A stretch of 14,811 nt of DNA from IMG/VR virus record IMGVR_UViG_2548877010_000018, one strand, 5' to 3'. The stretch comes from a virus. Lineage: Duplodnaviria; Heunggongvirae; Uroviricota; Caudoviricetes. The notes under the pieces are model-generated. The model was given only the letters and a program-made list of their open reading frames with translations. It did no database searches and had not been told where the DNA came from. Positions 710 through 6,532 of this stretch are shown here, piece by piece (within the stretch, counting starts at the first letter, position 1; each line of letters starts with the position of its first letter). The position numbers and the translations under genes were made by a program.

Positions 710-2086
710 TCATACGTCAGCCCCTTGTGCATATCGTCTGCCACGCGCAGCAGGTGCATTTGATGCTGTGCAAATCTGTCTGGCTTCATCCTGGTCACAT
801 GCAACAAAGTGTCCGTTACAGAACCGCTGGTAAACTGTACCAAGCGAGCCAAAACGGTTTTTCGTCACGATGATTTCAGCAAATGGCGCGGCGCTACTGT
901 TCTCATCATATACCGCTTCCCGATAGAGCATGATGATTGAGTCTGCGTCCTGTTCAATGCTTCCTGAATCACGCAAATCTGCGTTTGTCGGGCGTTTGTT
1001 TGGTCGCTTCTCAACATCGCGCGAAAGCTGACTCAGGGAGATAACCGGTGTTTTCAGGTCTTTCGCCATCGCCTTCAGGCTTCCGGAGATGTGAGCAATT
1101 GCGAGGTCGTTGCGGTCTGCTTTCGGCTTCTCAATCAGGCCAAGATAATCCGCCATGATGAGTGACAGGTTTGGATTTTCCTGCTTATGCCGTTCTGCGA
1201 TTGAGCGTATTTCTTCGACCGATAACCGCGAAGCATCGACTACCCATACATCCAAATCTGCAAGCTGACTCATGCCGTTAGCAACACGTGCCCAGCCCTC
1301 GTCATCCATCGATGCAGGATTTCGCAGTACGCTAACCGACATCCTCCCGGCGTTGGCAATGCTTCGCTCTGCAATCTGCAATGCGCTCATTTCCATTGAG
1401 AAAATCAATACCCCGCGCCGGACGTCAGAACCAGGAATAACGCGGCTTGCCACACCTTCGGCAATCTTCAGCGCCAGTTCGGTTTTCCCCATACCAGGAC
1501 GAGCGGCGATAATCACCAGGTCTTCTGCGTTCATCCCTCCAGTGATAGCGTCAAGCTCTTCGATTCCGGTCTTCAGGGTATCTGACTCTTCTCCGTTCCT
1601 CAGACGCCTGTCAAGCGTGTCAGTGTAGTCAGTGATGATTTCCCCTAACCGTACAGGTTTAACCTCGTCACGGGGCTTTCTGATGGCTGAAAGACGCTTT
1701 ACAAGTTCATCCATCGCCTGACTCGATGCGTCGATGGTTCCGCTTTGGATTGGTTCACGCATTTCATCCATGATTTCCAGCACCAGACGGCGGTGATAGT
1801 TATCCGCGACCATTCCGGCATATCCCTTCAGGTTTGCGGCACTCGGGCAGTTTTTGCTGGTCATCAGGATTGACGTGAAATGCTCCTCTCCGCACGCCTC
1901 GGCAACCATCAGCGCATCGATTAGGTTTCTGTTTCTCGCCTGCTTGCGAATAACCTCGAAGGCTTTCCGGTAGAGCGGAATTGAAAACGCTTCCGGCTCC
2001 AGCGTTGCCAGAACGTCACTGGCGGTTGGAGTTAATCCACCAATCAGCAGGCCACCGATAACGCTAGCTTCGATATCCTGTCTCAT
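710..2086 (-). CDS. DnaB-family replicative DNA helicase (phage type)
   Basis: 458-aa ORF with Walker A ([14 protein letters not shown]) and Walker B-like ([10 protein letters not shown]) motifs and DnaB-like N-terminal region. Start overlaps the stop of the upstream O-like gene (ATGA); SD aggggga precedes the start. Confidence 0.85.
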
Positions 2087-2904
2087 GCAATCCCCCTGTC
2101 TGCAAACTTCCCTTCCCGAACTCCCGTTAACGAATCTTCCCTCAGCAGGTAATCAAAATCTGCCGTCCAGCCCGTGTCGTTGTCTCCGAAGTAAAACGGC
2201 TTGGCCTGATGCACAAACGCCCTGACATACGCTCTGAAACCGTCCACGTTTGGCGTTTTCAGTTGCGGGATAATTTTCTTCAGGCGGCGTTTTCGTTTCT
2301 CGTTGACCGCAACAGCGTGTGGAAGTCTGTCACCGACTTCGGTGTTGTAGGCGTTCAGGAAGGATTCGTAGTCGATTCGTTCTGCCTTGCGACGTTCAGG
2401 TTTAACCTGCCCATCGCCATCCCCGTTAGGGGGTAAGGGGGTATTTGTATTTATTGTCTTTTGTATATTGTCTTTTGTGTTTAGCTGACTTGGCTTATAC
2501 CCATTAGCCGACTTGGCTAATGTTTTATTAGCTGTTTTAGCTAATGTTAAGCTGTCCTGGCTAATCCACTGAGAAACCACCTTGTTCACTCCGATTTTCA
2601 CGCCATCAGCAATGAGGAATTTACGCTCAATAAGCTGGCGCTTGGCAGCGCAAACATGAGTGTGATGAATACCTGTCATGGCTGCTATCTGCGTGTTTGT
2701 GAGTCGATCCATCGGCTTATTGAATCCGTATGTCTTGCGCATGATAGCGAGCATCACCTTCAACTGCCGGACGGTTAAATCAGCCATCAGCAGACTGTCG
2801 GTAATCTCGTTAGCAACGCGCATGAAACCATCTTCGGTATCTGCCACGCGATGCTCCACGACCTCCAGTTGAGGCCTGTAATCAGCTAACTTAACGACGC
2901 CCAT
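2083..2904 (-). CDS. Replication initiator, lambda O-like / replisome organizer
   Basis: 273-aa ORF with an N-terminal winged-helix-like segment and a low-complexity linker encoded exactly over the iteron array, as in lambda O where ori sits inside the gene. SD aggagtg lies 5 nt upstream. Confidence 0.75.
2440..2564. repeat. Phage origin of replication: four iterons plus adjacent AT-rich direct repeat
   Basis: Iterons tagctgacttggctta (2482-2497), tagccgacttggctaa (2505-2520), tagctgttttagctaa (2529-2544) and taagctgtcctggctaa (2548-2564), spaced about 20-24 bp. Adjacent AT-rich tract with tattgtcttttgt repeated twice (2450-2477). Confidence 0.7.
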
Positions 2905-3084: not shown

Positions 3085-3381
3085 TCAGAATTGCATATCA
3101 ATTTGCTTAAAATCCTCGGTGGCAGCCGGGGATTTTTTCTTTGTGATTTCATCAAGCGCATACTTAAAAGCCCTGCTAATCGGACTGATGTCTGATGCCA
3201 TTCCGAAAGCACACAAGACCGAAGCAATAAACCGCCAGTCCGTTCTGCTTATCTTCGATTCATGACAGCCAATCATCTTTGCCAGACCGCGCTGTGTAAG
3301 CGTTGACAGGTTGATGAGTAAATCTGTTTCTGCGCGATCAACGTCGCGCTGTGATAGTTTGCTGTAACTTGTTCGTTCCAT
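3085..3381 (-). CDS. cII: CII-like transcriptional activator
   Basis: 98-aa ORF whose C-terminus (KKKSPAATEDFKQIDMQF) resembles the recalled lambda CII C-terminus (KKRPAATERSEQIQMEF). HTH-like core; sits after cro and nutR as in lambda. Confidence 0.7.
   Translation of the reverse strand: MERTSYSKLSQRDVDRAETDLLINLSTLTQRGLAKMIGCHESKISRTDWRFIASVLCAFGMASDISPISRAFKYALDEITKKKSPAATEDFKQIDMQF
3113..3141 (+). terminator. Intrinsic terminator antisense to the 3' end of the cII-like gene (OOP-like RNA terminator candidate)
   Basis: Hairpin cctcgg-tggcag-ccgggg (6-bp stem, one G-U) followed by attttttcttt on the + strand, inside the 3' end of the minus-strand cII-like gene. Confidence 0.4.
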
Positions 3382-3466: not shown

Positions 3467-3512
3467 TCGCTTTTCAGCGACGTAGGACGAATGTCCGTTG
3501 TTACAAAGAGCG
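3467..3512 (-). promoter_or_regulatory. nutR-like site (boxA + boxB) between cro and cII
   Basis: Minus-strand reading gives boxA-like cgctctttgtaacaa (3498-3512) and boxB-like hairpin tcgctgaaaagcga (3467-3480). The boxB core gctgaaaagc is shared with the nutL candidate at 6148-6161. Confidence 0.6.
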
Positions 3513-3522
3513 GCTCCGCTTA

Positions 3523-3738
3523 TTAAGCGGCTTTGTGCTCCGGCGGGAACACGTCATCAAGACTTACTTTTGCGCCTAACTTGTTTAGACACGCAACAAG
3601 AGCACGGCATGTTTTAAGGTCTGGGAAGCGACGACCAGATTCCCAATGTCCGATAGCTCCCTGTGTGCATCCAACTGCCTTAGCAAGTGTTGTTTGAGAG
3701 ATATTCAGTGACTCTCGATATTTTCGTAGGTTGCTCAT
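3523..3738 (-). CDS. cro: Cro-like repressor (XRE-family HTH)
   Basis: 71-aa ORF with HTH (QTTLAKAVGCTQGAIGHWESG), divergent from the cI gene across the operator region. SD ggaggg lies 5 nt before the ATG. Confidence 0.8.
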   Translation of the reverse strand: MSNLRKYRESLNISQTTLAKAVGCTQGAIGHWESGRRFPDLKTCRALVACLNKLGAKVSLDDVFPPEHKAA

Positions 3739-3854
3739 ATGCCCTCCATAGTAACCACGAATAAAAAATACAATATGTACTTCTCAAATACAAGTAAAAA
3801 TACACATTGTGCATGGATGGTTCCAGTACAGAGCGTAATAATAAGGACATGAAA
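3739..3854. promoter_or_regulatory. OR-type divergent operator/promoter region (pR for cro, pRM for cI)
   Basis: 116-bp AT-rich gap between divergent cro and cI. Contains near-palindrome tacaatatgta (3769-3779), perfect 9-bp palindrome cacattgtg (3803-3811) and repeated ATACAA half-site-like motifs. Individual -35/-10 boxes not confidently assigned. Confidence 0.55.
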
Positions 3855-4508
3855 ATGAAATGGTATGAACTGGCTAGATCCAGAATGAAAGAGCTCGGCA
3901 TAACTCAAGAGAAGTTAGCCGAAGAGCTAGGTATGACGCAGGGTGGAATTGGACACTGGTTGCGCGGATCTCGTCATCCATCTCTTAGTGATATTGGTGT
4001 GGTGTTTAAATACCTTGGTATTGATAACATATCATTCAACCACGACGGGACATTTTCACCTGTTGGCGAATACTCATCGGCCCCAGTTAAAAAACAATAT
4101 GAGTACCCTGTTTTTTCTCATGTTCAGGCTGGGATGTTCTCTCCAGAACTCAGAACCTTTACCAAAGGTGATGCGGAGAGATTGGTAAGCACAACCAAAA
4201 AAGCCAGTGACTCTGCATTCTGGCTTGAGGTTGAAGGTAACTCAATGACCGCACCAACAGGTTCCAAACCTAGTTTTCCTGACGGGATGTTAATTCTGGT
4301 TGACCCTGAGCAAGCTGTTGAGCCCGGCGATTTCTGCATAGCCAGACTTGGTGGTGATGAATTTACCTTCAAGAAACTGATCAGGGATAGCGGTCAGGTG
4401 TTTCTACAACCACTAAACCCGCAATATCCAATGATCCCATGCAATGAGAGTTGTTCCGTTGTGGGGAAAGTTATCGCCAGCCAATGGCCTGAAGAGACGT
4501 TTGGGTAA
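3855..4508 (+). CDS. cI: CI-type prophage repressor with LexA-like (S24) autocleavage domain
   Basis: C-terminal half ([21 protein letters not shown]...EVEGNSM...FKKL...[11 protein letters not shown]) matches lambda cI as recalled, including the Ala-Gly cleavage site and Ser/Lys dyad. N-terminal HTH domain is not lambda-like. ORF track starts at 3807 on TTG; ATG 3855 (SD aagga 7 nt upstream) or 3849 is the likely start. Confidence 0.85.
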
Positions 4509-5009: not shown

Positions 5010-5531
5010 ATGGCAAAGTCAAACGTTAGCGTGCAGGCATTCAAGGACTTCCTTGAAGAGCTTATGTCGCTGAACATAATGAAGGAGGCCACCGCTCGAA
5101 ATTTAAAAAACTCATCCGCTCGCCTCTTAACGGTAGTCCAAGAAGAGGAAATGGGTGATGTTACTCAGCTTGATGTGAATGAGCTTGCCGAGCGATACAT
5201 CAACGCAACTGAGCCGAAGCCTAGCGACAGCAGCATTACTGCATATAAAAGCCGCATGGAAAGTGCAATCAAAAAGTTTGTAGCTTTCCAGTCTGGTGAA
5301 GAAATCCCATACACTCCGATTGACAAAGAATCCAGTGAGGAAAAAGATTTGACTGGCGAACCAACAAAAGTCGAAGGCAAGGCTAATGCACTTCATACCT
5401 ATGATCTTCCAGTAGTTCTTCGACCTGAATCAGGGGTTACAGTAACGATTAAAGGCATTCCTAACGATATCACAAACGAAGAAGCCGAACGCATCTCTTC
5501 AATTCTGAAGGTTTACGTTCGGCCTCAATAA
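5010..5531 (+). CDS. Hypothetical protein (173 aa), immunity-region accessory gene in the rexAB-equivalent position
   Basis: Longest ORF in the cI-to-pL gap, with a protein-like E/K-rich composition and no motif I recognise. Own candidate promoter upstream and terminator downstream; appears AT-richer than neighbouring genes. Confidence 0.6.
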   Translation: MAKSNVSVQAFKDFLEELMSLNIMKEATARNLKNSSARLLTVVQEEEMGDVTQLDVNELAERYINATEPKPSDSSITAYKSRMESAIKKFVAFQSGEEIPYTPIDKESSEEKDLTGEPTKVEGKANALHTYDLPVVLRPESGVTVTIKGIPNDITNEEAERISSILKVYVRPQ

Positions 5532-5827: not shown

Positions 5828-5834
5828 TCATCAA

Positions 5835-5861
5835 CCCGGCCTCCATGCCGGGTTTTCTTTT
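5835..5861 (+). terminator. Intrinsic terminator closing the immunity-region moron
   Basis: Perfect 6-bp stem cccggc/gccggg with loop ctccat followed by ttttctttt. Confidence 0.65.
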
Positions 5862-5997
5862 CCTCTCGCCCAAAAAAACACATAACCAATTGTATTTATT
5901 GGAAAATAAATAGATACAACTCACTAAACAACGCAATTCTGATCTCTCCTTACATCGCCGAGGCAATACACCCACGCTAAAAAACAATACTATTAAA

Positions 5998-6070
5998 TAC
6001 AAAGCGTTGTAAAAAAACGCCCCGTTTTAGAACAAATTGTATTGACCAAGTGAAGTACATATCGTACTAT
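5998..6070 (+). promoter_or_regulatory. Candidate pL promoter with OL-type operator palindromes
   Basis: -35 ttgacc (6042-6047), 17-bp spacer, -10 tactat (6065-6070). Palindromes tacaaagcgttgta (5998-6011), aaaacg-ccc-cgtttt (6014-6028) and acaaattgt (6033-6041) share ACAA/TTGT half-sites with the OR region. Confidence 0.5.
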
Positions 6071-6115: not shown

Positions 6116-6161
6116 GGCTCTTTAAACAACGTCGACTCTCGACTACGTGGCTGAAAAGCCA
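6116..6161 (+). promoter_or_regulatory. nutL-like site (boxA + boxB)
   Basis: boxA-like ggctctttaaacaa (6116-6129; compare rrn boxA tgctctttaacaa) and boxB-like hairpin tggctgaaaagcca (6148-6161), about 100 nt upstream of the N-like gene. Confidence 0.6.
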
Positions 6162-6259
6162 GATCACCCAACCACATAAGCTGTGGGATGCAATGCCGAA
6201 GCAACCGTCTCAGGAGGAGCTTCGAGATTGCATCGCCAAAGTTTATTCGGGAGGAATCT

Positions 6260-6532
6260 ATGTCCAGAAAAACAGAATTTAAAGGCACCGCAGCTTCTCG
6301 CCGTAGAGCTCGTCGCGCAAACCTGCAAAGTCAGGAGGCGATTAGCTCCGACAAACTACACAGGCCAACCCCATCACGAGTGGTCTTACAATGCAAACGC
6401 AAACCAGCAATGAGAGCAGAAGTAATAACACTGACAACGTTGACCAGAAAATATGAAGGCTCAACTTGTCTTCCAAATGTAGCTCTTTACGCGGCAGGCT
6501 ACCGTAAATCCAAACAACTGACAGCAAGATGA
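6260..6532 (+). CDS. N: N-like transcription antitermination protein (arginine-rich motif)
   Basis: ATG 6260 preceded by SD gggagg. N-terminal arginine-rich motif GTAASRRRARRANLQ typical of lambdoid N proteins; sits downstream of pL/nutL candidates. The longer track ORF from 6188 lacks an SD. Confidence 0.65.
   Translation: MSRKTEFKGTAASRRRARRANLQSQEAISSDKLHRPTPSRVVLQCKRKPAMRAEVITLTTLTRKYEGSTCLPNVALYAAGYRKSKQLTAR

Follow-up and report, generated by a model that had tools for sequence, protein, structure and literature searches.

A two-module mosaic cI repressor with matching Cro and putative operators in a lambdoid prophage immunity region of the VT2-Sakai/Stx2-II/1717/Nil2 type

We analyzed a stretch of 14,811 nt of DNA (hereafter the window, with position 1 at its first letter) and read it, with a probability of about 0.9, as containing an Escherichia coli O157 lambdoid prophage immunity region of the VT2-Sakai/Stx2-II/1717/Nil2 type, in which a two-module mosaic repressor is accompanied by a matching Cro and matching operators. 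What we observed directly comprises the sequence identities, the junction within cI, the domain content, the catalytic residues, the operator statistics and the identity to known phages. The whole 14.8 kb is found, in several pieces, at 100% identity in E. coli O157 chromosomes such as 644-PT8 and 180-PT54. The immunity region, the repressor mosaic and the operators are already sequenced, annotated and described for Shiga-toxin phages: the 1181 bp from cII through cro and OR to cI are 100% identical to 1717 (Stx2), YYZ-2008, Stx2a_WGPS4/6 and phi330, and 99.8% identical to Stx2-II, the Stx1-converting phage, Nil2, 2851 and the PA series. The search for an exact match to a catalogued immunity type thus found one, VT2-Sa/Stx2-II/1717, and as far as novelty is concerned the proposal of the earlier note falls with it. 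A comparative study had reported that lambda CI (termed CI2a) and CI2c have a common carboxy terminus and a different amino terminus, that CI2c is paired with cro4, and that the cI of VT2-Sa bears a stop codon created by a SNP (Smith et al. 2012, PMC3430580).

The window covers the early part of a lambdoid prophage and runs opposite to the lambda map. Genes were assigned from the list of open reading frames, Pfam, the match to PHROG 271 and the annotations of matching records, and the main features are as follows.

710-2086, minus strand: DnaB-like P
2083-2904, minus strand: O
3085-3381, minus strand: cII, the establishment activator downstream of cro (Pfam Phage_CII, E = 6.3e-32)
3523-3738, minus strand: cro, 71-aa HTH_3 protein (XRE-type, all-alpha by its Pfam match) of the 'cro4' type of Stx phages
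3739-3854: intergenic gap between cro and cI, 116 bp
3855-4097, plus strand: N-terminal DNA-binding domain of cI and first part of the linker, residues 1-81 (HTH_3, predicted non-lambda specificity)
4098-4508, plus strand: linker and C-terminal S24 domain of cI, residues 82-217 and stop codon, corresponding to lambda cI 102-237
5010-5531, plus strand: 173-aa ORF with no function assigned, located where lambda has rexAB
about 5995-6070: OL/PL
6188-6532, plus strand: N antiterminator, transcribed from PL (PHROG 271, N-like anti-termination protein, E = 4e-25)

The ORF list agrees with the OR gap (3739-3854) and the cI end (4508) as they had been placed before. N is annotated as such in the AP005153 and Nil2 records, and beyond it follow Ea10-like, cIII, kil, gam, bet, exo and further genes. 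The window also contains two copies of IS629/IS1203, one of which splits exo. The reading frames of cI, cro, cII, O, P and N are intact.

The closest relation to lambda lies in the C-terminal half of cI. By BLASTP and by codon-by-codon comparison, residues 82-217 and lambda cI 102-237 agree in 135 of 136 amino acids, the sole change being W to L at window residue 110. At the DNA level 4098-4504 differs from lambda at 28 bases (93.4% identity), and 27 of these changes are synonymous. The similarity begins abruptly at Y82 (YEYPVF, window position 4098); codon 81 and all DNA upstream of it are unrelated to lambda, and blastn of the window cI against lambda gave no alignment upstream of 4098. It ends just as sharply at the stop codon, which itself differs between the two (TAA vs TGA), and the sequence beyond is unrelated. 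The junction is located in the inter-domain linker, 10 residues ahead of the Ala-Gly cleavage site. Pfam places Peptidase_S24 in residues 85-207 (E = 1.1e-28), and among solved structures the shared block matches the lambda repressor entries 3bdn, 8gmu, 2ho0, 1kca and 1f39. The cleavage site A92-G93 (4128-4133), Ser130 (4242-4244) and Lys173 (4371-4373) are invariant across the five repressors that we aligned (window, lambda, P22 c2, P8983 and BIS08P22). With both an HTH_3 domain and an S24 domain carrying the Ser/Lys dyad and the Ala-Gly site, cI falls into the LexA/lambda-cI-type autocleaving class. The earlier note had described cI as matching lambda from the hinge onward, including the autocleavage residues, and the alignment bears this out. 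As the S24 catalytic apparatus is intact, RecA-dependent induction can reasonably be inferred, and self-cleavage stimulated by activated RecA would be expected because of the 135/136 identity to the lambda segment that bears this activity.

The N-terminal domain (NTD) of cI is of a different kind. Pfam finds HTH_3 in residues 9-56 (E = 1.9e-10, above the gathering score), while only 17 of the 81 residues (21%) are identical to lambda, and the lambda-type N-terminal arm is absent, lambda having about 16-20 extra N-terminal residues. Together with the missing blastn alignment this upholds the statement that the N-terminal HTH of cI is unlike that of lambda. Among PDB sequences the domain matches the NTDs of lambda (E = 4.5e-4), 434 (0.24) and P22 (0.4) only weakly, and we rejected an assignment to the classical lambda, 434 or P22 type, as the similarity to these is that of remote HTH domains. 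Judged from these comparisons the specificity of the domain is non-lambda, yet its HTH_3 fold class is the same as lambda's. In 56 phage records the NTD is found at 99% identity or more; the VT2-Sakai copy, for which the premature stop is reported, has 98.8%. Three start codons come into question for cI: position 3855, the ATG at 3849 and the ATG at 3813, the last being the choice of RefSeq and AP005153. The ORF from ATG 3813 passes through OR3 and this ATG is not conserved in the Salmonella phage BIS08P22, which does retain the motif AAGGA..ATGAAAATGAA found around 3843-3859; for these reasons the true start is most likely 3849 or 3855.

Cro was described in the earlier note as a 71-aa XRE-type protein unlike lambda Cro, and we found this to be correct. 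It carries Pfam HTH_3 (E = 4.2e-12), has no match to the lambda-Cro family in Pfam and gave no BLASTP alignment to lambda Cro. Among solved structures PDB 28tn is its closest relative (E = 4.5e-17), and the best matches comprise lambda-repressor-like HTH proteins as well as P22 c2. By these matches Cro is an all-alpha (434/P22-type) HTH_3 protein and not of the alpha+beta fold of lambda Cro; the gene is annotated as cro in 1717, Nil2 and AP005153. The cI NTD and Cro of the window phage are 35% identical and both carry TQG-IGHW in the HTH region, as is expected for proteins reading the same operators, for which Cro presumably competes with cI. A second indication comes from BIS08P22, in which the NTD, Cro and the operator region have diverged from the window (NTD 48% and Cro 43% identical) while the C-terminal domain (CTD) is 80% identical, so that cro, OR and the NTD act as one module and the linker with the CTD as another. 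The shared HTH residues and the similar divergence of NTD and Cro in BIS08P22 agree with the claim that Cro, operators and NTD are all non-lambda and match each other.

For the operators we found six putative 17-bp dyads, three in OR and three in OL, with the consensus AAGTACA-N3-TGTACTT (symmetrised, AAGTACAAATTGTACTT).

3766-3782: putative OR1 AAATACAATATGTACTT, the right operator nearest cro, overlapping the proposed PR -10
3798-3814: putative OR2 AAATACACATTGTGCAT, 32 bp centre-to-centre from OR1
3824-3840: putative OR3 CAGTACAGAGCGTAATA, overlapping the proposed PRM -10 (AATAAT, 3837-3842)
5995-6011: putative OL3 AAATACAAAGCGTTGTA
6028-6044: putative OL2 TAGAACAAATTGTATTG, overlapping the PL -35 (TTGACC, 6042-6047)
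6053-6069: putative OL1 AAGTACATATCGTACTA, across the PL spacer and overlapping the -10 (TACTAT, 6065-6070)

All six correspond verbatim to putative operators annotated in AP005153 (Stx1-converting phage), where promoters are annotated as well. The pattern ARWACANNNYGTD occurs 10 times in the window against 0.71 matches expected, a count that is circular since the pattern was derived from the sites themselves. For a non-circular test a matrix was built from the sites of one side and the 14.8-kb window was scanned with it, maxima in shuffled sequences averaging about 10.5. The OR-trained matrix returned OL1 (18.4) and OL2 (13.7) as the best two non-training sites in the window, and the OL-trained matrix returned OR1 (20.0) as the top one. 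OR2 (9.7), OR3 (9.9) and OL3 (8.6) scored weakly by the cross-trained matrix, within the range of shuffled sequence, so that their status rests on position, spacing and the GenBank annotation. With the operator matrix three sites are also found between cro and cI of the diverged BIS08P22, and lambda, P22 and P8983 have none in OR, which supports a link between this NTD family and the motif. A lambda OR1-type pattern with up to 3 mismatches was absent from OR and OL of the window; its one match, at 10226, is at chance level. ACAA/TTGT-type palindromes with ATACAA half-sites had been proposed as the shared operator signal, and this holds only in part: 17-bp dyads are present at both OR and OL, but the ATACAA hexamer alone is not enriched in the window (10 occurrences vs 6.85 expected, with 22 of 200 shuffles reaching 10). 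Similarly, the candidate OL at 5998-6041 does lie in a region that holds dyads, but the range misses OL1, the strongest left site.

The promoter scan reported PL as a good consensus match, with TTGACC (6042-6047) and TACTAT (6065-6070) separated by a 17-bp spacer. PR and PRM, both 8/12 matches, were not reported at the 9/12 threshold; their hexamers were read by eye as candidates and roughly agree with the AP005153 annotation. For PR there are two possible readings, both overlapping OR1 and both with 17 bp between the hexamers: TTGTAT (3793-3788) with TATTTT (3770-3765), and TTTACT (3798-3793) with TATTGT (3775-3770). The proposed PRM consists of TGGATG (3814-3819), 17 bp and AATAAT (3837-3842). 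Its start would fall near A3849, the A of an ATG, so that cI, like lambda cI, would be translated from a leaderless mRNA. With this start the centres of OR2 and OR3 would lie near -43 and -17, compared to -42 and -19 for the lambda equivalents calculated from annotated coordinates.

In its general layout the window resembles lambda, with divergent cI and cro, the same gene order and tripartite OR and OL composed of 17-bp dyads. The two differ in the operator sequences, which in lambda are of the TATCACCGC type and not of the AAGTACA-N3-TGTACTT consensus, and in their spacing: the distances in the window are 32 bp (OR1-2), 26 bp (OR2-3), 25 bp (OL1-2) and 33 bp (OL2-3), in contrast to 24/23 bp in lambda. 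Because one pair on each side is spaced by 32-33 bp instead of lambda's 23-24 bp, lambda-like pairwise cooperativity is an assumption, and the wide spacing might alter which dimers cooperate. Furthermore, lambda rexAB is replaced in the window by the unrelated 173-aa ORF, downstream of which a lambda-like stretch is found (5833-5948, 87.5%), and in AP005153 the N gene is annotated as HK97-type, unlike lambda N. Compared against the lambda immunity (imm-lambda), NTD, Cro and operators of the window are all non-lambda, and the region does not belong to it.

Among the phages of the same type (VT2-Sakai, Stx2-II, the Stx1 phage AP005153, 1717, YYZ-2008, Nil2 and 2851) the DNA of cro, OR and cI is 99.8-100% identical to the window, and gene order and the six operators are the same; the flanks of VT2-Sakai/Stx2-II/1717-type phages differ from the window in the positions of IS629/IS1203 insertions. 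More distant relatives are the P22-like Salmonella phages BIS08P22, g341c and SPN9CC (Lederbergvirus), which have the same short NTD (MNWY/MKWY start) and Cro family, ATACA-N3-yGTAT dyads in OR and, as in the window, a lambda-type CTD. Since their recognition-helix residues are TKGAVSHW and those of the window TQGGIGHW, the BIS08P22 group probably has an immunity specificity distinct from that of the window phage. A further Shiga-toxin phage repressor, that of the Stx2a phage BAA2326, is reported to be 61% identical to lambda, and its OR1-3 have been footprinted, with cooperative binding to OR1 and OR2 (Chakraborty et al. 2018, PMC5977221). This BAA2326/P8983-type repressor is related to lambda cI over its whole length (NTD 56% to lambda). 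We excluded that the window cI is the BAA2326 repressor, as the footprinted operators of the latter (ATAACTGTGCGTAATG and others) are unrelated to those in the window and the P8983-type repressor is only 25% identical to the window cI in the NTD and 64% in the CTD.

The comparisons support cI as a mosaic relative to lambda, with a pattern that fits recombination and not differing rates of divergence, because DNA identity steps at codon 82 and silent sites are conserved downstream of it only. This is also what the earlier note had supposed, namely recombination at the hinge of cI, and the sharp junction in the linker with synonymous-level DNA identity on the C-terminal side alone speaks for it. 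As the shared block extends exactly from codon 82 to the stop codon, it would be the specificity module (cro, OR and NTD) and the module for induction and oligomerisation that were reassorted. A course of events free of recombination would require that an ancestral lambda-like cI kept its CTD while its DNA-binding domain diverged rapidly under diversifying selection for new immunity. Diversifying selection is indeed expected for immunity specificity, the window and lambda NTDs share the HTH_3 fold class with a residual weak alignment (E about 5e-4), and in the pair of window and BIS08P22 the NTD (48%) is likewise more diverged than the CTD (80%). However, selection on the protein cannot produce near-identical synonymous sites (27 of the 28 differences are silent), and gradual divergence does not fit DNA identity that is undetectable up to codon 81, jumps to 93% at codon 82 and halts again at the stop codon. 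Silent-site divergence is unlike in the two halves of cI, as seen from the failure of blastn to align anything upstream of 4098, and the architectures of the two NTDs differ by the arm-containing N-terminal extension of lambda. We consider such an explanation hardly credible.

A mosaic by recombination does not yet tell which of the two repressors is the recombinant. Lambda may have been the recipient of the shared CTD and could equally be the recombinant, the CTD having historically belonged to the short-NTD lineage before it was acquired by the NTD lineage of lambda (P8983/BAA2326-type). In BIS08P22 a short NTD (48% to the window) is joined to a CTD that is 80-81% identical to those of window and lambda, while P8983 combines a lambda-like NTD (56%) with a CTD of 64-65% identity to both lambda and the window; from this pattern the nearest outgroup for the shared CTD bears a short NTD. 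The argument is based on four sequences, however, with one pair for each case, which is too few to give the event a direction, and lambdoid phages are likely to have undergone multiple exchanges. We therefore hold this history to be a possibility of some weight, although one we would not bet on, and it would alter the history of the locus and not its function. A quite different objection is that the locus might be a decayed remnant in which repressor and operators no longer form a working switch, as has been suggested for the VT2-Sakai copy. The two IS629/IS1203 copies and the split exo could be taken as signs of decay, as could the SNP-created stop in the VT2-Sa cI (Smith et al., PMC3430580). 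In the window itself, on the other hand, the six early genes from P to N named above are intact, and the cI-cro region is identical to phages isolated as inducible particles, e.g. 1717, 2851 and phi330. The divergence of cI from lambda is synonymous-only, which points to purifying selection on cI and likewise counts against decay, so that we regard a dead switch as very unlikely.

Taking cI as a mosaic repressor that still works, we propose the following switch, in which the lambda paradigm serves as the model for how the operators are occupied and where the promoters lie, and likewise for cooperativity, RecA cleavage and heteroimmunity to lambda. The short HTH_3 NTD would read the 17-bp dyads, three at OR between the divergent cro and cI and three over PL. 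The linker and S24 CTD would supply dimerisation, cooperativity between dimers and RecA-stimulated Ser-Lys autocleavage at Ala92-Gly93. Repressor dimers at OR and OL would shut both PR and PL, with OR2 the probable site from which they activate PRM, and Cro would act at the same OR/OL sites, which would result in a lambda-style bistable switch. Upon DNA damage, active RecA would trigger self-cleavage through Ser130/Lys173 at A92-G93, by which the DNA-binding and dimerisation domains would part and the prophage would be induced. The reassortment of modules would thus yield a phage that is heteroimmune to lambda but induced in the same way.

Published binding experiments have used the six annotated VT2-Sakai operators with lambda CI, to which they bind weakly, in the micromolar range (PMC9803871, PMC10742460); by EMSA the VT2-Sa operators and lambda CI gave a micromolar apparent Kd (PMC10742460). 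In the literature that we reached we found no binding, footprinting, cleavage or immunity data for the cognate repressor, and the PA2/PA8 IS629 paper and the JH2010/JH2016 switch-region paper hold no data specific to it. The region is a textbook example of how lambdoid immunity regions exchange modules, and its switch controls the induction of Shiga-toxin phages. As a discovery its value is small, because it is already contained in GenBank annotations and in the comparative-genomics paper of 2012. Its practical value lies in being a very common immunity type for which the literature reached appears to lack measurements of cognate affinities, of cooperativity at the atypical spacing and of cleavage kinetics, while comparable ones are published for 933W and BAA2326.

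Regarding its frequency, 776 of 5426 complete E. coli genomes (about 14%) carry the cro-OR-NTD DNA, at 802 places in total and with up to 2 per genome, and the lambda-type CTD DNA was found at 1435 places in 1211 E. coli genomes, with up to 3 per genome. The lambda-type CTD hence occurs in E. coli with other NTDs as well and, by count, sometimes in the same genome, for which reason repressors of co-resident heteroimmune prophages with a common CTD could conceivably form mixed dimers or mixed cooperative or looping contacts. We consider this improbable; if it were true, the stability and induction of formally heteroimmune prophages would be coupled, for example by dominant-negative heterodimers that lower the effective repressor level of a Stx prophage.

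Among 5426 complete E. coli genomes, we observed the lambda-type C-terminal block of the cI repressor at 1435 places in 1211 genomes (at most 3 per genome), and the module of cro, OR and N-terminal domain belonging to the window's immunity type at 802 places in 776 genomes (at most 2 per genome). Therefore, several DNA-binding modules are in circulation with the same C-terminal module, and the counts imply that it must sometimes share a genome with a different N-terminal domain.

For the putative 17-bp dyad operators in the cro-cI gap (OR sites, 3766-3840) the centre-to-centre distances are 32 bp between OR1 and OR2 and 26 bp between OR2 and OR3, and for those over the inferred promoter PL (putative OL sites, 5995-6069) they are 25 bp (OL1-OL2) and 33 bp (OL2-OL3), compared to 24 and 23 bp in lambda. 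The spacing is thus asymmetric: the wide gap separates OR1 from OR2 on the right but OL2 from OL3 on the left. The start of cI (within 3813-3857) is annotated inconsistently across databases: RefSeq and the Stx1-converting phage AP005153 place it at ATG 3813 (231 aa), in which case OR3 would be read through, and the annotation of the related phage Nil2 places it at ATG 3855 (217 aa). We favour a start at 3849 or 3855, based on conservation in the diverged Salmonella phage relative BIS08P22 and on the inferred leaderless start from the cI promoter PRM.

Searching for boxB-like hairpins with a GAAAA loop yielded two matches, compared to 0.01 expected:

3468-3479, minus strand: boxB-like hairpin CGCTGAAAAGCG, downstream of cro
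6149-6160, plus strand: boxB-like hairpin GGCTGAAAAGCC, downstream of PL

The boxA-like sequences CGCTCTTT and GCTCTTTA lie ahead of the respective hairpins, and these boxA/boxB-like pairs are presumably nutR and nutL for the HK97-type N. By eye, we also recognized TTGC-N6-TTGT at 3350-3363 (plus strand, the cI strand) inside the first codons of cII, which is similar to the cII-binding repeat TTGC-N6-TTGC of lambda PRE.

The following reading frame lies downstream of cI:

5010-5531, plus strand (cI strand): orf173, a 173-aa ORF, PHROG 2602, no Pfam match

Since orf173 lies on the cI strand at the position held by rexAB in lambda, a lysogen may express it. A terminator-like hairpin (5833-5854) follows it, contained in a stretch (5833-5948) sharing 87.5% identity with lambda 35709-35826, just downstream of rexB.

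The window carries two mutually inverted copies of the IS3-family element IS629/IS1203 (1-657 and 9157-~10466), whose arms are 100% complementary across 657 nt. The first copy is truncated by the edge of the window and stops about 50 bp away from the DnaB-like P gene's 3' end. The second copy, which interrupts the exo/YqaJ gene (pieces 8901-9392 and 10505-10894), contains two reading frames:

9199-10089, minus strand: orfB
10086-10412, minus strand: orfA

Related O157 genomes have the IS at different sites of this prophage; strain 644-PT8, for instance, has it between cI and orf173.
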